A DNA stretch of 64,000 nt, from the NCBI GenBank assembly GCA_963711155.1, contig CAVQDB010000005.1, positions 899,298-963,297 of the forward strand, read 5' to 3'. A model generated the notes under the pieces. It saw only the letters and a list, made by a program, of their open reading frames with translations, did not search any database and was not told where the DNA came from. The translations under genes were made by a program, and so were the position numbers. This DNA comes from an uncultured Armatimonadetes bacterium (lineage in GTDB: Bacteria; Armatimonadota; UBA5829). Of this stretch, positions 13,459 to 21,624 are shown piece after piece. Position 1 is the stretch's first letter, and every line of letters starts with the position of its first letter.

Positions 13459-16132
13459 TTACTCACCAAGCGCGCGCCTGCGCTCGATGAGCTTCTCCCC
13501 CTTCTCACGGAGTTCGGTAACGATCCTACGCTCCTTTTCCACAATCTCGGCCGGCGCACGCGAGATGAACTGCTGGTTTGCCAGCTTCGACTCGTGCGGA
13601 GCAAGCTCTTTCGAAATCGCGTCAAGTTCAGCATCGATGCGTTCCAGTTCCTTCGCGACGTCGATAAGCCCAGCGACCTCCATATAGAGATCGAGTCCCA
13701 GAAAGATGCGCGGCAAGATATTTGCCCTTGTCCGAATCCGCTATGGAATCGGCGAAGCTGAGCCCTCCTATCCGAGCAAGCGACTTGATGCTCTCCGCAT
13801 TGCGCTCGACCGCGGCTCTTGCGGCGTCCGACCCCACCACAGCACGTCCACCGGCTTGCTCGGCGCCGCGCCCAGCTCGGCCCGGAGGTTCCTCACGGCC
13901 CTGACAGCGTCCATCACGGCGTTCATCTCAGCCTCGGCCGCTTCATCGATAAGTGACAAATCGGCCTCAGGGAACGGCGCGGTCATGATGCGACTCGCCC
14001 TCGTGCGGCAGCGCCTGCCATATCTCCTCGGTGATGAACGGCATGATCGGGTGCAGCAGGCGCAGGGTCGTCTCCAGCACGTGCATAGCAGCATCGCCTG
14101 CGCCTGCGCCTTTGCGTCGCCGCCCGCGCGCAGCCTCGGCTTGGCAAGCTCGATATACCAGTCGCAGAACTCGCTCCACACGAACTCATAGAGCCCGTTC
14201 GCGGCATCGTCGATGTCGTAGGTGGTGAAGCTTCTGTTGACCAGCTCGATAGTGCGGTTCAGGCGAGAGAGAATCCAGCGGTCTTCGAGGGCTGCGCCCG
14301 AGGACCCCTCCCCGACCCTCCCCGCTCGGAGAGGGCGTATAGCCCTCAAGGTTCATCATCACAAACCGCGAGGCGTTCCAAATCTTGTTGCCGAAGTTGC
14401 GCACGTTCTCCACGCGCTTGTCGGAGAACCGAATGTCCTGGTTCTTGCCGGCCTGCTGCATCAGCGCGTAGCGCAGCGCGTCCGCGCCGAATTGCTCGAT
14501 CAGATCCAGCGGGTCCACGCCGGTCCCGAGCGACTTGCTCATCCGCTTGCCCTCTTCGTTGAGCACGGTGGCGTAGATATACACGTCCTTGAACGGAATC
14601 TCGTCGAGATACTCCAGGCTGGAGAAGATCATTCGCGCGACCCAGAGATAGATGATCTCCCGCGCGGTCACGAGCACGTCGGTCGGGTAGAAGTAGTCCA
14701 GCTCAGGCGTCTTTGCAGGCCAGCCCAGCGTCGCGAACGGCCACAGCGCCGAGGAGAACCACGTATCGAGCACGTCCGGGTCCTGAGTCACATTCGAGCT
14801 GCCGCACTTCGAGCACGGCCTCAAGCTCGGTCTTGGCGGCCGTATACTGCCCGCAGTCCTCGCACTTCCAGACCGGAATCCGATGCCCCCACCAGAGCTG
14901 CCGGGAGATGCACCAGTCGCGCACGTTCTCCATCCAGTCGATGTAGATCGCTGCGTAGCGGTCCGGGAAGAACTTCACCTTGCCCTGCTTCACCACGTCG
15001 ATCGCCGGCTCGGCAAGCTCCTTCATCCTGCAGAACCACTGCTCGCGACAGCAGCGGCTCGATCACGGTGTGGCAGCGCTCGCACGTGCCCACGGAGTGC
15101 GTGTAGTCCTCGATCTTCTCGATCAGGCCCTGCGCTTCAAGGTCGGCGACGACCTTCTCTCGCGCCTCGTAGCGATCCAGCCCCTCGTAGCGCGCGCCGG
15201 CTTCCTGGGTCATGCGAGCCGTCCGGGCCGATCACGACCACCTGCGGCAGGTTGTGCCGCAGGCCGATCTCGAAGTCGTTGGGGTCGTGCGCGGGCGTCA
15301 CCTTCACCGCGCCGGTGCCGAACTCCATGTCCACGAACTCGTCGTCAACGATCGGGAATCATGCGGTCCGTCAGCGGCAGCTTCACGTTCTTGCCGAGCA
15401 TGCCTTGTAGCGCTCGTCGTCGGGATTCACCGCCACCGCCGTATCGCCGAGCATCGTCTCGGGCCGAGTCGTCGCCACCACCACATAGCCCGAACCGTCC
15501 TCCAGCGGGTATCGCAGATGCCAGAGGTGGCTGTGCTGCTCCACGTACTCGACCTCGATGTCGGAGATCGCCGTGTGGCAGCGCGGGCACCAGTTGATGA
15601 CGCGCGCGCCGCGATAGATTAGGCCCTTGTCGAACAGCCGCACGAACGATTCCAGCACCGCGTCGACGTAGCCCTCGTCCATCGTGAACCGCTCGCGCTC
15701 CCAGTCGAACGAGAACCCCATCGTCTTGAACTGGTGCAGGATCTGCCCGCCGTATTCCTCCTTCCAGGCCCACACGCGCTTGAGGAACTCCTCGCGGCCG
15801 AGGTCGTGCCGGGTGAGACCCTCCTCGGCAAGCTGCTGCTCCACCTTGTTCTGGGTCGCGATCCCGGCGTGGTCCGTGCCGGGCAGGCAGAGCGTTTCGT
15901 AGCCCTGCATGCGCTTCCAGCGCGTGAGCACGTCCTGGATCGTGTAGCACAGCGCGTGGCCGATGTGCAGCGAGCCGGTCACGTTCGGCGGCGGGATGGT
16001 GATGCAATACTCCGGCTTGCCGGGCTTCGCTTCGGCGTGGAAGTAGTCCTTCTCAAGCCAGAACTCATACCATTTGCTCTCCACCAGGGCCGGATCATAC
16101 ACTGTCGGCAATTGTGCGGTCTTTTCAGTCAT
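13459..16132 (-). CDS. valS: Valine--tRNA ligase, at least 8 frame breaks
   Basis: HIGH 'SLHIGHAL', '[14 protein letters not shown]', KMSKS '[10 protein letters not shown]', and a C-terminal coiled coil. Pieces lie in ORFs 15383..16177, 15137..15334, 14821..15213, 14703..15026, 14186..14824, 13768..14349, 13967..14179, 13628..13840 and 13459..13716. ATG at 16132 has AGGAG 7 nt upstream. Confidence 0.92.
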
Positions 16133-16200
16133 GGTTACGCTCCTGTGTAGCGGTTGAGTCTCAAATCCAAAATCCAAAATGCAAAATCCAAAATGCAGAA

Positions 16201-16380: not shown

Positions 16381-16545
16381 CGAGGCACGAGCGTATCGAA
16401 GGGCGATGCCTGAAGCACACGCTTCGATACGGCCGCCAGACCCGGCCTACTCAGCACTTACGGTGTTGCTGTTCCAACGCCGACAAGCGCGAGGCTCAAA
16501 CAGCTATATCGGGCTTACCCGGCGGGTTCTACTCGGCCTCACCTC

Positions 16546-16708
16546 GTCATGCTCAACTTGATTCAGCATCCACGCTCACGTCATGCTGAACTTGATTCAG
16601 CATCCACGCTCATGTCACGCTGAACTTGATTCAGCATCCACGCTCATGTCATGCTGAACTTGATTCAGCATCCACTCCGGATGGGTCCTGAATCAAGTTC
16701 AGGATGAC
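16546..16708. repeat. REP-B cluster: four 36-bp tandem hairpin units plus one inverted arm
   Basis: GTCATGCTGAACTTGATTCAGCATCCACGCTCAY repeated 4 times, then GGGTCCTGAATCAAGTTCAGGATGAC. Confidence 0.95.
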
Positions 16709-16786
16709 GCGCGTGCACACGGCCTTTCTTCCCACGGCATACGGGGCGACGTTCGCGCGGCGGCAACCTGGAAACCTCACACCTCC

Positions 16787-16823
16787 GGCCCTTCGATACG
16801 CTCGTTCCTCGCTAATCAGGGCC
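16787..16823. repeat. REP-A hairpin lying inside the T-box Stem I distal loop
   Basis: GGCCCTTCGATACGCTCGTTCCTCGCTAATCAGGGCC, closed by GGCCC/GGGCC. Near-identical to the copy at 27528-27565. Confidence 0.85.
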
Positions 16824-16893
16824 TACGGTTTCCTCTCTCTAGGCGCCCACCGCCTACTCTTCCCCGCAATTGCCTTTGAATCAACTACCACCC

Positions 16894-16922
16894 ATTGTAG
16901 CGGATGGTTCGGGGGATGTAAA
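16894..16922 (-). promoter_or_regulatory. Sigma70-type promoter of the valS leader
   Basis: Minus strand reads TTTACA, 17 nt, TACAAT. This places the TSS about 20 nt upstream of the Stem I base helix. Confidence 0.65.
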
Positions 16923-16936
16923 GGTGCAAGGCAACC

Positions 16937-17782
16937 CTAAGGCCCTCTAGGTCCGTGGTTCACCTCGACAACATCTGCTTTCCAGTACCCGCTTCCACCT
17001 TGCCATTGCTTGCCAGTTCGCCGCGGCATGTGCAGACGCTCGCGATGCGAGACCAGTGGGCGCGGCGGAGGGCCAACATACTCGTTGTGCGAGCATGAAG
17101 ACCACAGCCAGTCGCCCACCCGCCAGAATTGGCTCTGGCCGTATTCGTTCTCGGAAGATGACACAGGCCCTACATCCAGAGCGAGATTCCAATAGCCTCG
17201 GCGGCCGCGGTCTACGCGCCCGAGATGCGCCCTCAGATCGCCCGGTAGTTCCTGATCCTTCCATTCGACTGCGAGATAAGACTTGTCGAACGCAAGGAAG
17301 TCGTGAAACGGTATCGGAACCCCATCGCGCATTGCGTAACGCGGTATCACGTGGCCGTTGGGGTCATACACACTCGTCCGCTTTTGGATGTCGTTCGTGG
17401 CATAGTTCACCACGACGACGTATGGCCGCATCTTCGTCTTTCTGCTTCGAACGACGAACTTGCACGCGCAGCCTTTCGTCTCAACGCACCGGATCACCAG
17501 TGTGCGGTAGATAGTGTCGCCCGGTCGAAAGGGCCAGTCTCCGCGCAGTCTGAGTGTAGCCGGAAGGACCTGCGAGAGCCGGATCACGGCCTCGTCCCCG
17601 ACATGCGGCATCACCGGACCGTAAGAATACTCCTTGTGTGTACGGCACCCGCCAACGCGCACTACTGCAGCCACGACGACCGCAACCAACACGCACAGCG
17701 ATATGGCAACCGGCTTCGCGTACCTCATAGTGGATGTGACGAGCGGCGCGTCTGCAGGGTTCCCGCATTCCCCATTCGGCAT
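16937..17782 (-). CDS. Hypothetical membrane-anchored protein (no recognisable domain)
   Basis: Intact 281-aa ORF. A TM helix 'VAISLCVLVAVVVAAVV' follows the internal Met 'MRYAKP'. Lies 17 nt downstream of the ParB-like gene on the same strand. Confidence 0.55.
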   Translation of the reverse strand: MPNGECGNPADAPLVTSTMRYAKPVAISLCVLVAVVVAAVVRVGGCRTHKEYSYGPVMPHVGDEAVIRLSQVLPATLRLRGDWPFRPGDTIYRTLVIRCVETKGCACKFVVRSRKTKMRPYVVVVNYATNDIQKRTSVYDPNGHVIPRYAMRDGVPIPFHDFLAFDKSYLAVEWKDQELPGDLRAHLGRVDRGRRGYWNLALDVGPVSSSENEYGQSQFWRVGDWLWSSCSHNEYVGPPPRPLVSHRERLHMPRRTGKQWQGGSGYWKADVVEVNHGPRGP

Positions 17783-17799
17783 TCCCCATTCCCCATTTG

Positions 17800-18951
17800 C
17801 TACGCCGCCGCCTGCACTTCAAACCGCGGCGTATAGTTCTCGCACTTGTAGGACTGGGAGTTTTCGTCGGGGCTTTCGGCGTCGGACATGAAGACCGCGT
17901 AGCCGAGCTTGGTGCACTTCTGGTAGGACTGATCGTAGTGCCCGCAGTCCAGGCACCGCCGCAGCACGCTCCAGCACACGCTGCACCGCAGGCTCCCGAT
18001 CAGCTCGATGCGGCCGCACAGCGGGCAGTGGATGTAGATCTCCTGGAAGTTGCGGTCGGTCTTCTGCAGCGACTCGCGCATGGCCTTGTTGAAGTTGTTG
18101 ATCTGCTCGGCAAGGTCGGCAGTCGCGCTGAGCATCTGGTTCATCTGCTCAGAGGAAAGATACTGCGCCACGCGCTCGTCGAGCAGGTCCAGCACCGACG
18201 TGCACGCCTTCTGCATCGACTTGAGGTGCTGCTCGGCGGTCTTGGGCTGATACGGCTTCTTGGTCCGCGTCTGCCTGCCGATGCTGCGGAGGATCTCCTC
18301 CGTGACGTGCAGCGGCACGCGCAGGAACGCCTCGGTCTTGGTCGGCACTTCGGCGATCGCGGCCATGACTTTCTTGAGGTCGTCCACGCTCATCTTCTCT
18401 GCGCGAACCTTCTTCGCGAGCCGAATCTGCAGCTTGAGGTTGTCGTTCAGGGGCCGCAGCGCGTAGGCGTGGCCTTCCAGGAACTCTCCTTCTTTCTCGC
18501 CGGGCTTGGCGAGCAGTTCCGTGAGTATCTGCTCGGGGAGGTCGAGAAGATCGAGGTAGCGGCGCATCGTGGAATCGGCCACGCCCAGGGTCTTCAGACA
18601 CTTCTCCCAGCTCATGAACTCCAGCAGCTTCTTGATCGCGCGAGCGCGCTCGACCGGGTTGAGGTCCTCTCGCTGGAAGTTCTCGACAAGCGCGTCGGCA
18701 CTGGCGTCTTCGTCTGTGAGTTCGCGGACGATTGCCGGGATCTGCGTGAGGCCGGCCAACTGCGAGGCGCGCCACCGCCGCTCGCCCATCACGATCTCAT
18801 ACTTGCCGTCGGCGACGGGCCGCACGACTATCGGCTCCAGCACGCCGCGCTCGCGGATCGACATCGCCAGTTCGAGAAGCGTTCCCTGGTCGAAGGACTT
18901 CCGTGGCTGGTCGGAGGCGGGCGAGATCTTGTCGAGATCGATCATTTCCAT
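17800..18951 (-). CDS. ParB/Srx-fold protein with C-terminal double zinc ribbon (orphan ParB-like)
   Basis: Intact 383-aa ORF with 'GERRWRA' arginine patch, 'VENFQREDLNPVE', and HTH-like 'LGVADSTMRRYLDLLDLP'. The C-terminus reads CxxC-x10-CxxC-x6-CxxC-x9-C. No parA is nearby. Confidence 0.75.
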   Translation of the reverse strand: MEMIDLDKISPASDQPRKSFDQGTLLELAMSIRERGVLEPIVVRPVADGKYEIVMGERRWRASQLAGLTQIPAIVRELTDEDASADALVENFQREDLNPVERARAIKKLLEFMSWEKCLKTLGVADSTMRRYLDLLDLPEQILTELLAKPGEKEGEFLEGHAYALRPLNDNLKLQIRLAKKVRAEKMSVDDLKKVMAAIAEVPTKTEAFLRVPLHVTEEILRSIGRQTRTKKPYQPKTAEQHLKSMQKACTSVLDLLDERVAQYLSSEQMNQMLSATADLAEQINNFNKAMRESLQKTDRNFQEIYIHCPLCGRIELIGSLRCSVCWSVLRRCLDCGHYDQSYQKCTKLGYAVFMSDAESPDENSQSYKCENYTPRFEVQAAA

Positions 18952-19189
18952 TGACAGCAGGCTCCTTGCACGATGTTCTCAGAAATGGGGTGTTCGGAGA
19001 GCATCCCATTTCTGACGGCGCGACCCAATCTCCATTATGGGCAGACTGGGCGCACTAGAGGAGACTTCCCGCACAGATTCCAGCACAATTACGAGGGAGA
19101 AGGCAATCGCGGATTACGAATCACGAGTTACAGGCTGCCCGCTACCCATGGTCCTTCGTATTTCGTAATTCGTATTTCGTAATTCGTGA

Positions 19190-21624
19190 TCAACGCACCG
19201 TATCCACGCGGATGGTCTCGCCGTCCGTCGTGATCGTCACCGCGCCGCACTGGCCCGTTATGTAGGTCCTGGCGCCAGAGGTTCTGAGGCGGTCGAGGGT
19301 CAGATGAGAGGGAAAATGGTATTGGCTTCGGCGCGCGCACGAGATCACCGCGATCTGGGGACGCACCGCCCCAAGCCACTCGGAGCTAGTCGCCTGACGC
19401 GACCCATGATGTCCCACCTGCAGAACCTGCGCCCGCACGTTCAGGCCGGCTTTGATCATATCCTGCTCCGCCGCGTCGCTTGCATCGGCCGTCAACAGGA
19501 TCGCAACTTTCTTGTAGGTAAGGCGCAGCACGATGGAGCGGTCGTTGAGGTTCGGGTAGCGCACATCCGACACGGGGTTCAGAACCCGCGCGCGCACGCC
19601 GTCACCCATGTCAATCATCTGCCCGCGCCGCGCGACTCGAAACCTCGCGCGACTGTCCTTGACCGCCCCGGTAAACGCCCTGTATTCGGGAGCCCTGCAT
19701 TTCGCGCCGCAATCGAGAACGAGTTCGGCCGGCTCCGACTTGAACAGGCCGGGGAATCCAACGTCGTGGTCCAGATGAGGGTGGCTCAGCACCGCCACAT
19801 CGATGGAGTCCAACCCCAGCCGCTGCAGATACGGCGCGACCAGCTTCGATCCGACCTCGGCGTTGTGGTCGCCCCAGCTCGACGTGCCGCAGTCCATCAG
19901 AAGCGTGTGGCCGGCGGGCGTGCGCACGACCGTGCACAGCCCGTCGCCGACGTCGAGGAAGGTGACCTGCAAGTTGTGAGGCGCGCCGAGAAGCACGCTC
20001 AGCCACAGCCCCGCCGCAACCGCCGCCACAACCCCTAAGACCCGAACGCGGTTATCTCGCAGCAACTTTCGACCTCACAAACCCCGCCACCCCATAGAGC
20101 ACGACGTAGTAACCCACAATCGCCAGCACGCCCGGCGACTGCACCGACACCGAGCTGTATCTCATCGACCCGAGGTAATCGACCGACGACAGCATCGCGC
20201 GAGTCGAGACCGTGCCCAACCCTCCGATCCAGTGCGCGCAGTGCGGAATGTGGGCGGTTATCGGCGAGATGAAGCTGTCGATGAACACCACCGGCACCCC
20301 GAACGCCACCGCCAGGTTTGCAGGCACGGACACGAGCGAGATGTAGTTGAAGTAGAACGCCACTATCGGCGCCGTCGCGAGGCTCACGGCCAACGTCGCG
20401 ATCCCAACCGATGCCAGTTCCCGTGCAAACCACGACGCGCCTGACCCTCGCCGTTCTCGACAGCCACGGCTCATGCGGCCGCCAGCGTGGTCGTCGCCCC
20501 ACCCCACGCAGCGGCGTCTGTTCGAGCAGCGTCTCCAACACCGGCGCGACCGCGATCAGCCCCAGCACCGCCAGGAACGACAACTGGAACCCGATGTCGA
20601 ACAGATGCGACGGATTGAACAGCAGCACCAGAAACGCCGCCACGTAGAACAGGTTCTTGTAGTCGGGAACGCGCTTGAACGGCGCTGCGAGCAGCACGAG
20701 GATCGCCATCACCGCCGCCCGCAGCATAGACGGCACCGGCCCCACCATCAGCAGATACAGCGCGATCAGCAGCACCATTACGCCCCACCTGTATCGCGGC
20801 AGCACTCGCAACAACCTCAACAGCGGCGAAGCAATGATCAGCAACACCAGGCAGTTGTATCCCGACGCCGCCAGCACGTGCAAGGTCCCCGTCCGGGTGA
20901 AGTCCCGGAGCGTGTCATCGTCGAGGTACGCGTATGTTCCGAGCACAACGCCGGACATCACCGACGCGACCTCCCGCGAATGAATCCGGTAGATCGACGA
21001 GACCAGATACCTCTTCCCCGCGAAAGCCGCCCGCACGATGCTGTGGGAGCTGCTCTTGCTGAGGACAGTCACCCGCGAACGGTCCCGAACCGACGCGCAG
21101 CAGTAGATCCCGTGCCGCTCGAGGTAGTTCTTCCAGGAAAACTGGCCGGGGTTCGTCGGCTCGTAGGGGATGTACGGATGCACTGCCAGCCTGAGCCTGT
21201 CACCGTATTCCAGCCGGGGAAGGCTCTGTTCGGGCGCAAGATACATCGTGACCATCACGTCCCCGCTCGCGGCACGCCATTTGTCGCCCACCCGCGCCCG
21301 GCTCACACGAAAGCTCAATCGCCTGGAATCCGGCGCGCCGCCGATATCCGAGGCGACCGTGCCCTCGATCGCCCTCACCTGCCGGCAGAATCGCGACACG
21401 TCATCGGGCGCGACAGACCGGTCCGCGGCGTATCTCAGCGCCCCGCACACGACGACGGCGGCAACCAGCAGCAGCGTCGCGCGGCGCTGGGCCGGCACCA
21501 TCAGCAGTCCCAGCAGCGCTGCCGACGCCGCCACCAGCGCGCAGCCCGCAAGGCCGAATCGATCGCCCGCCAGTATCCCGGCCGCAAACGCGACGGCCAC
21601 CACGGCCATGCGTCTCTCCGGCAC
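19190..21624 (-). CDS. comEC: DNA internalisation competence protein ComEC/Rec2 (membrane Competence domain + MBL-fold domain), 1-2 frame breaks
   Basis: The polytopic Competence domain is in ORFs 20035..21624 and 20052..20507, with a break near ~20480. The MBL domain 'LQVTFLDVGDG...HPHLDHDVG...LQVGHHGS' is in ORF 19190..20065. That ORF overlaps the membrane part by 14 nt in another frame. Confidence 0.8.

Follow-up and report, generated by a model that had tools for sequence, protein, structure and literature searches.

The 64,000-nucleotide stretch of DNA analyzed here (the window; contig CAVQDB010000005.1 of assembly GCA_963711155.1, positions 899,298 to 963,297, from an uncultured Armatimonadetes bacterium) carries a gene for an orphan paralog of the partition protein ParB, which we call ParBZ. 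The gene occupies positions 17800 to 18951 of the window, stop codon included, on the reverse strand, as do the parts of ParBZ, of the open reading frame downstream of it, and of comEC given below, and its product has 383 amino acids (aa). ParBZ has the marks of a chromosomal ParB that was duplicated, retained all of the cytidine triphosphate (CTP) machinery, changed its DNA-reading surface, and exchanged its tail for a putative zinc domain. With modest confidence, we favor the explanation that ParBZ is a CTP-gated DNA clamp with a specificity other than parS and a zinc-module tail that serves as an effector or dimerization end, and that it is a chromosomal, vertically inherited ParB paralog of the Armatimonadota. 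The architecture is real and conserved, and full-text literature searches found no description of it. A 2025 Pfam-based survey of the ParB-CTPase fold reports orphan ParBs and lineage-specific fusions to be common (PMC12704722); a zinc domain on a ParB is not mentioned in its text, nor are the Armatimonadota.

ParBZ keeps the fold and the nucleotide pocket of ParB

Residues 2–93 of ParBZ (18673 to 18948) match the N-terminal CTPase-fold domain of ParB, PF02195 (ParB_N), with an E value of 2.2e-34 and 117.8 bits against a gathering cut-off of 26.3. Residues 95–199 (18355 to 18669) match the ParB-type helix-turn-helix (HTH) domain PF17762 (HTH_ParB; E 2.7e-10, 40.7 bits), an assignment that PDB sequence matches carry to about residue 200: Spo0J, Noc, and ParB align with residues 5–210 at E values of 1e-36 to 1e-26. 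The generic ParB model TIGR00180 of NCBIfam scores 158 bits, over its cut-off. The AlphaFold2 (AF2) model of the full protein has a predicted local distance difference test (pLDDT) score of 83, and in a Foldseek search of the PDB it matches structures of Noc and ParB over residues 1–200, with E 1e-14 and TM scores of 0.70–0.75. A protein database search yields more than 100 homologs of 60–92% identity, all about 383 aa long. Past residue 199 there is no Pfam match, and a profile of the C-terminal half against the PDB came back empty. On these points the first-pass annotation of this DNA was sound. It had claimed a 383-aa ParB-fold reading frame, which the list of open reading frames (ORFs), Pfam, NCBIfam, and the same-length homologs show to be real and intact; it had also claimed an HTH, now matched by PF17762, and the replacement of the canonical C-terminal dimerization domain, of which Pfam finds no trace.

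An alanine scan of Caulobacter ParB assigned CTP binding or hydrolysis to residues Q58, R60, S74, G79, E102, R103, R104, E135, N136, and R139 (PMC8367383). By motif position, their equivalents in ParBZ are Q15, R17, S31, G36, E57, R58, R59, E90, N91, and R94. All ten, which cover the C-motif and P-motifs 1–3 (QxR, S..G, GERR, and ENxQR), are kept, and all ten are invariant in an alignment of 57 ParBZ sequences of 47–92% identity. P-motif 1 is Q15-P16-R17 (18901 to 18909), corresponding to Q58/R60. P-motif 2, GERRxRA, is G56-E57-R58-R59-W-R61-A62 (18766 to 18786), the GERRWRA arginine patch already picked out by the first-pass annotation at residues 56–62; its E57 corresponds to the hydrolysis residue E102. 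P-motif 3, ENxQR, is E90-N91-F-Q-R94 (18670 to 18684), corresponding to E135/N136/R139. Judged by sequence, the ParB nucleotide-binding domain of ParBZ is complete: no known CTP-contacting or catalytic residue is missing.

ParBZ stands beside a canonical partition system

The source genome, G000, has a separate parAB–parS system. A frame-broken parA–parB pair lies at 568.6–569.7 kb of contig C2, and the window is on contig C5. Four genomic sites match parS (TGTTTCACGTGAAACA, at most one mismatch); all of them fall within 36 kb around that pair, and C5 has none. Within the window there is no parS match at up to three mismatches, and the only ParA-like match is a Wzz/BY-kinase (tyrosine kinase) gene at its start, in agreement with the earlier statement that no parA or parS lies near ParBZ. 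The description of ParBZ as an orphan ParB likewise fits a genome whose canonical system sits on another contig. No cluster of parA-like neighbors occurs around ParBZ in 82 loci.

Because the G000 assembly is open to question, single-contig relatives were checked as well. Each of four complete relatives (G144, G303, G333, and G153) encodes ParBZ together with a canonical ParB of 287–298 aa that has the HTH helix GKSRSxVANTLRLL and a standard C-terminus. Three of these four canonical ParBs start with KGLGKGL, the exception being the G333 call, and a parA-sized ORF precedes three of the four; the start seen in canonical relatives is MxKKGLGKGLGAL. One further genome, G230, has the canonical ParB only. 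ParBZ, for its part, opens with MEMIDLDKISP, which is already in the first strand of the fold, and upstream of its ATG the frame stays open for just 9 codons (392 codons in all). Since the fold begins at once and so little open frame lies upstream, ParBZ cannot carry a ParA-activating N-terminal peptide.

Could ParBZ nonetheless be simply a chromosome-partition ParB with an unusual tail? Databases do name it a "ParB/RepB/Spo0J family partition protein," and it exceeds the TIGR00180 cut-off; with canonical ParB/Spo0J it shares both ParB_N and HTH_ParB and identical nucleotide-pocket residues. However, the same genome and its complete relatives already have canonical parAB–parS, and ParBZ lacks the LG(K/R)GL peptide, a parA neighbor in the 82 loci, parS on its contig, and the canonical C-terminal dimerization domain, while its recognition residues are incompatible with parS. 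We regard this explanation as very improbable. The separate parAB–parS system, the presence of both genes in complete relatives, the missing ParA peptide, and the diverged DNA contacts described below are why ParBZ is assigned, by comparison of these genes, as a paralog and not as the partition protein. It is 38–46% identical to canonical Armatimonadota ParBs over residues 4–195. Separately, G000 has a third ParB_N open frame (318 aa, 67.5 bits) at C2:977793-978074, at the very end of contig C2.

The DNA-reading surface has diverged

Six DNA contacts are common to ParB and Noc: Q162, G170, K171, S172, N178, and R204. Reading of parS is defined by R173 and G201, both of them absolutely conserved, and reading of the Noc-binding site (NBS) by Q173, K179, K184, and R201 (PMC7383237). 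We matched ParBZ to these positions through the G...LP frame that it has in common with canonical Armatimonadota ParBs. The recognition helix, G123-VADSTMRRYLDLLDL-P139 (18535 to 18585), is diverged from the canonical GKSRSxVANTLRLLxLP, as seen in comparison with those ParBs and in the family alignment. At the six common positions ParBZ has W115, G123, V124, A125, R131, and Y163, respectively; thus the K171, S172, N178, and R204 of canonical ParB/Spo0J are V, A, R, and Y, and R173 is D. At the parS-specific positions it has D126 and G160, and at the NBS positions D126, Y132, D137, and G160, so that the Noc residues are absent. Contact residues altered in this way suggest that ParBZ does not read parS or NBS as ParB and Noc are known to do. 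Inside the ParBZ family, however diverged from ParB and Noc, the recognition helix is strongly conserved (S127, T128, R130, R131, L135, L136, L138, and P139), which argues for a ligand that is conserved and different.

A cysteine-rich module replaces the canonical C-terminus

After the HTH domain, the AF2 model continues with a helical region (residues 200–305; 18037 to 18354; pLDDT mostly 80–90) that includes a 32-residue helix at residues 267–298 and is a candidate dimerization element. The helices are followed by a small beta-rich cysteine module, which we call Cys8 (residues 306–375; 17827 to 18036). The cysteine pattern reported in the first pass is correct, C309xxC312-x10-C323xxC326-x6-C333xxC336-x9-C346, and an eighth cysteine that it overlooked, C370, completes two sets of four (2 × Cys4). 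All eight are invariant in the 57 aligned sequences; H308 is conserved in closer homologs only. The module is conserved to the same degree as the CTPase domain (20 of its 70 columns are invariant), and its signature, RRCxDCxxYD...AExP...S.S..C..Y.P, is family-specific. Cys8 probably coordinates two zinc ions.

Searched against 1.84 billion cluster representatives, residues 200–383 retrieved only 31 clusters, which consist of full-length ParBZ, two forms with an extended N-terminus, and standalone proteins, about 80 aa long, that share the signature. In the sampled genomes the standalone proteins are 76–118 aa long (L128, L131, L136, and L137, in genomes G178, G058, G151, and G083 of family f26), and in f26 the gene for the module-only protein sits in a conserved block, after a CDF transporter gene, recJ, and relA/spoT and before a 278-aa gene. 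At G322 L133:3650-4611, Cys8 forms the N-terminal part of a fusion with a glycerophosphodiester phosphodiesterase (GDPD) domain. A 475-aa divergent paralog at G366 L132:5111-6538 combines a degenerate ParB_N (GARR for GERR, 42 bits) with the module, which stands at the C-terminus of the protein. Because standalone, GDPD-fused, and degenerate-ParB-fused forms all occur, we take Cys8 to be a portable, autonomous unit, and such portability would fit a role in protein interaction or dimerization better than a catalytic one.

Cys8 appears to be a new small domain. No significant relative of the C-terminal half was found in Pfam, PHROGs, the PDB sequence profile search, or the Foldseek searches of the PDB and BFVD, and the best whole-module fold matches have E values of 0.057 (PDB) and 0.075 (BFVD). 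The zinc-binding C-terminal domain of the GATOR2 subunit MIOS was considered as a relative, but its matches (E 0.06–0.45) are weak and do not count as evidence. The closest resemblance is to double zinc ribbons (DZR, PF12773; DZR_2, PF18912) and to RanBP2/NZF ribbons: the first CxxC-x10-CxxC pair of ParBZ is predicted to form a small zinc ribbon, and 25-residue pieces superpose on NZF/RanBP2 fingers. In contrast to those families, ParBZ reaches only E 0.37 and 11.1 bits on DZR_2, against a cut-off of 27, has no whole-module match in PDB or BFVD, and bears a signature of its own. Neither DZR nor DZR_2 matches above its gathering score, and the standalone proteins P0141 and P0144 have no Pfam match at all.

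Two observations concern the ends of the protein. The C-terminus is -AA (AAA, KAA, QAA, RAA, and similar; window 17803 to 17826) in 30 of 57 family members; an ssrA/ClpXP-like degron was considered and dropped, as the other sequences end otherwise. Two long forms, P0125 (735 aa) and P0127 (771 aa), have a globular domain of about 200 aa without a Pfam family, followed by a proline-rich linker, ahead of ParB_N. Fusion to the metallo-beta-lactamase (MBL) domain of ComEC was ruled out for these forms, since the N-terminal domain is unrelated and a proline-rich linker follows it.

A proposed clamp or a possible adaptor

If ParBZ is a clamp, its dimer would be held by the C-terminal half and would load at a specific non-parS DNA site through the diverged HTH. 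On CTP binding, the N-terminal gate would shut and ParBZ would slide along DNA as a clamp; hydrolysis, for which Q15 and E57 are present, would reopen it. The Cys8 zinc module would provide the dimerization end or the end that recruits a partner.

Several points weigh against this explanation. Of the six DNA contacts common to ParB and Noc, five are replaced and only the glycine is kept, and the position of R173 is occupied by the acidic D126; DNA binding by ParBZ is accordingly an assumption. The search for a binding site was also negative: across 83 loci, no conserved palindrome occurs within 1.5 kb of the ParBZ gene besides coding-sequence coincidences, and the palindromes over-represented in the genome proved to be elements resembling repetitive extragenic palindromes (REP) or miniature inverted-repeat transposable elements (MITE), with conserved flanks, or else tandem or genome-specific heptamer arrays. 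We infer zinc binding from the cysteines themselves, and dimerization through the C-terminal half from a model of the monomer. Lastly, a section heading of the 2025 survey states that nucleotide specificity is not reliably predicted by sequence analysis or AlphaFold3 (PMC12704722), so the nucleotide preference of ParBZ cannot be read from its sequence.

The same losses are what make an adaptor conceivable. ParBZ might be a nucleotide-dependent protein that does not bind DNA, with its zinc module and helices acting as a scaffold for other proteins, in the manner of PadC, the bactofilin-ParA adaptor of Myxococcus. PadC is an orphan ParB-fold protein as well, uses nucleotide binding in a non-clamp role, and is a weak fold match of ParBZ (6ryk, E 8e-6). 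The lost DNA contacts and the acidic residue at the R173 position would both be expected of such a protein, and the zinc module is portable enough to occur on GDPD, an enzyme that does not act on DNA. PadC, however, lacks an HTH and the catalytic glutamine, and ParBZ keeps both: its HTH is still recognized, the helix is strongly conserved at S127, T128, R130, R131, L135, and L136, and catalytic Q15 and E57 are retained (PMC8367383). We judge the adaptor unlikely, though worth keeping in view.

As a CTP-gated clamp, ParBZ would resemble Noc of the Firmicutes (TIGR04285) in its logic, in which a duplicated ParB acquires a different site and a different effector end. Noc and ParBZ are ParB paralogs that are encoded on the chromosome away from parA; each keeps the CTP pocket intact and has an HTH of ParB type with altered specificity and a lineage-specific effector end, and Noc is the best PDB fold match of ParBZ (7nfu, E 1e-14, TM 0.70). 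ParBZ is nevertheless not a Noc. It scores 156.9 bits on TIGR04285 against a cut-off of 315, has neither the N-terminal amphipathic membrane helix nor Q173, K179, K184, and R201, and its C-terminal half, with the zinc module, is unrelated. Because ParBZ belongs to a different phylum, its duplication is independent of that of Noc, and the likeness would be an independent invention. KorB (of RK2), BisD, and VirB also use a ParB fold with an HTH outside segregation, and KorB structures match ParBZ at E 1e-11. Unlike ParBZ, which is chromosomal, vertically inherited, and different at its C-terminus, these three are carried on plasmids or integrative elements, and their operators and partners (KorA, for example) are known.

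Distribution and descent

ParBZ appears confined to the phylum Armatimonadota, with essentially no occurrence elsewhere. Residues 200–383 match 132 of 401 sampled Armatimonadota genomes, in about 110 of which the match is full-length ParBZ, in eleven families. Most lineages have a single copy; the Armatimonadaceae have two or three paralogs. The GTDB species genomes contain 123 ParBZ loci, and among the 80 of these that were listed nearly all are from Armatimonadota or lack a phylum name; two carry odd taxon labels, and both are contigs of metagenome-assembled genomes (MAGs). Named ParBZ homologs are from Armatimonadota. In a maximum-likelihood tree, from which eight rows that were mis-extracted antisense ORFs were set aside, ParBZ forms a clade of its own (support 100/100) on a long branch from canonical ParBs, and families f1, f2, f3, f4, f5, and f18 are each monophyletic. 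The agreement of the tree with families and taxonomy indicates vertical inheritance.

This pattern bears on whether ParBZ could be the orphan ParB of a mobile element or a defense system. Orphan ParBs are often tied to mobile elements, according to the 2025 survey (PMC12704722), and the N-terminal half of ParBZ does have ParB-like matches in PHROGs. Yet neither PHROGs nor viral folds gave a match to its C-terminal half, the gene shows stable synteny and is mostly single copy in addition to following taxonomy, and its neighbors are housekeeping genes (valS, comEC, rpoN, tilS, and ispE). No integrase, phage, or plasmid genes occur in the loci examined, consistent with the earlier claim that no plasmid or phage genes are nearby. 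PADLOC defense models gave no system match, only 18.6 bits to a methyltransferase model through ParB_N. A mobile or defensive origin is, in our estimation, highly unlikely.

Adjacency to comEC

Directly upstream of the ParBZ gene on the same strand lies comEC, as the first-pass annotation had it, here in the form of two ORFs. The MBL part is a separate 291-aa ORF (19190 to 20065), recognized by tblastn at 70% identity to the MBL gene of L013, the closest relative (92% identity in ParBZ), and by split calls in relatives. The DUF4131 and Competence membrane part (20052 to 21624) was found by tblastn of L013 ComEC in two frames and from Pfam matches of relatives; it contains one frameshift near 20444–20482. 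A spacer (18952 to 19189) with a heptamer tract at its 5′ end separates the MBL part from the ParBZ gene, and no promoter or terminator consensus was found in it. In all relatives examined (L013, L015, and L016 among them), comEC is split into a DUF4131/Competence gene of about 500–545 aa and an overlapping MBL gene of about 263–316 aa. A split comEC seems widespread in the Armatimonadota, because many of their ComEC frames are only about 520–560 aa long; others are 800–950 aa.

The adjacency had led the first-pass annotation to raise, as speculation, a link to DNA uptake. ParBZ could in principle work with ComEC, either by handling incoming DNA or by regulating comEC and competence in the way of KorB-, BisD-, and VirB-type clamps. 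The order comEC membrane part, comEC MBL part, parBZ, all on one strand, recurs in 22 of the 26 assessable loci of families f1–f4, down to 55% ParBZ identity; the outer genes differ between those loci, and the spacer is 100–200 nt in most. Outside these families the arrangement dissolves. A survey of 82 ParBZ loci finds comEC upstream in none of three f5 loci and none of 52 loci of other classes, and in complete genomes outside f1–f4 comEC lies 140 kb to more than 1 Mb away from ParBZ. Even within f4, a C11 peptidase gene stands between the two. In other lineages ParBZ follows genes for an extracytoplasmic function (ECF) sigma factor, an anti-sigma factor, and DUF4446 (also tilS), or precedes ispE. 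Across ±4 genes of the 82 loci no neighbor is universal, and all are lineage-specific. Co-occurrence, too, was tried as evidence and is uninformative, given that 299 of 300 good genomes have comEC, against 96 of 300 for the ParBZ C-terminal module. As the adjacency is limited to four families and comEC is universal, it says nothing for a role in DNA uptake. The gene order suggests that the adjacency, while real, is ancestral synteny of one class, in four related families, and not a functional link, and we consider joint action with ComEC, including a regulatory link within that class, improbable.

At five f16 loci (L081, L087, L092, L094, and L096), ParBZ is immediately preceded by a DUF4446 gene (128 bits), which itself follows genes for ECF sigma, anti-sigma, and TilS. 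DUF4446 often adjoins parB in other phyla.

The downstream open reading frame

Downstream of ParBZ on the same strand is an ORF that the first-pass annotation joined with it into a two-gene unit. The ORF spans 281 aa when read from 17782, but its first 18 codons are spurious, being supplied by an (AATGGGG)n heptamer tract just past the ParBZ stop (17763 to 17799); the database call, from the likely start ATG at 17728, is 263 aa (16937 to 17728). A short gap on the same strand therefore stands, at 71 nt from the likely start and not at 17 nt as first given. The product had also been described as membrane-anchored with no recognizable domain. The second half of that description holds, as no family matches in Pfam, NCBIfam, PHROG, or PADLOC; in place of a plain anchor, however, the N-terminus has a lipobox-like VGGC (LSGC in the homolog), which makes this a rare, probable lipoprotein.

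The strand and the short gap are what speak for a functional unit. Against it, the downstream ORF has a single homolog, of 35% identity, among 5.8 billion proteins, versus hundreds for ParBZ, and its GC content at third codon positions is 0.69 versus 0.89. By tblastn it is absent from L013, L015, and L016. In L013, DNA homology ends at the ParBZ stop and returns at the valS leader, and what fills the slot in between is an unrelated, PEP-CTERM-like gene of 321 aa that runs on the opposite strand. No +1 neighbor of ParBZ is shared across lineages in the 82 loci, with ±4 genes clustered. Homologs without the partner, and a slot refilled in a relative whose ParBZ is 92% identical, refute the pairing as a conserved unit, and we give it next to no credence. 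By this comparison the downstream ORF appears to be no partner but an insertion specific to this strain, in a slot whose content varies. Of the earlier suggestion that both architecture and pairing were undescribed, the first survives and the second falls with the partner.

A different pairing occurs in the Armatimonadaceae (f16; L080, L082, L088, L093, L095, L115, and L124), where the gene next after early-branching second and third ParBZ paralogs is conserved and encodes a proline-rich, helical protein of about 253 aa without a Pfam family. That gene and these paralogs may be a real two-gene unit.

State of the genome and its repeats

The G000 assembly comprises 5.6 Mb in five contigs, with many frame breaks, and is nearly twice the size of same-genus genomes (about 3 Mb). 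Compared with the intact genes of L013, valS (13459–16177) is broken into four or more pieces, with at least four frameshifts, and the membrane part of comEC shows its single frameshift. The frame breaks reflect either an error-prone assembly (completeness is estimated at 60% despite five contigs) or real decay. Upstream of valS, non-coding DNA at 16484–16923 is 69–91% identical to L013 and has no Rfam match at the gathering threshold.

Repeats are prominent in G000. Arrays of a 7-nt unit (ATTGTCA/ATTGACA) set head to head create a perfect palindrome of 14–16 bp, TTGTCAATTGACAA, for example at C5:1370759 and C3:1235794, outside the window. It has 22 copies with unique flanks in a genome of 62% GC, none in six same-genus genomes, and at most three copies elsewhere in the phylum. 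As a candidate ParBZ site it was rejected, being the junction of inverted ATTGTCA heptamer arrays and absent from those six genomes, which carry ParBZ. A second candidate, GCGTTTCGAAACGC (3 copies), belongs to a repeat. Other heptamer tracts flank ParBZ itself, at window positions 19146–19190 and 17763–17799. At C3:1259017-1260384 lies a tandem array whose units recur about every 58 bp and each contain the palindrome GCGCAATTCCATTGCGC, and REP/MITE-like composite elements are represented by GGGTTTTCCAAAACCC...GGCGTTTGGAAACGCC (about 40 copies) and CTCCCCGNNNCGGGGAG (78 copies).

Significance

ParB-type CTP switches are a young field, and few members with known roles outside segregation have been described, namely, Noc, KorB, BisD, VirB, and PadC. 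Neither ParA nor the downstream lipoprotein gene is a partner of ParBZ, and on present evidence ComEC is not one either. Over a long time ParBZ has been kept in several classes of a phylum that is poorly studied. MAGs labeled Armatimonas sp. and Capsulimonadaceae carry it, so that cultured members could make ParBZ testable.

More tentatively, and with less confidence than we place in the clamp itself, we raise the possibility that ParBZ stands beside ParB and Noc as the third functional class among chromosomal CTP switches of the ParB type: a phylum-specific clamp that would mark sites of its own and be coupled through its Cys8 domain to a cellular partner, for example in division, the envelope, or nucleoid organization. 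If true, this would be an independent re-run of the innovation that led from ParB to Noc, and ParBZ would offer, beside Noc, a second natural experiment on how a ParB clamp can be re-targeted.

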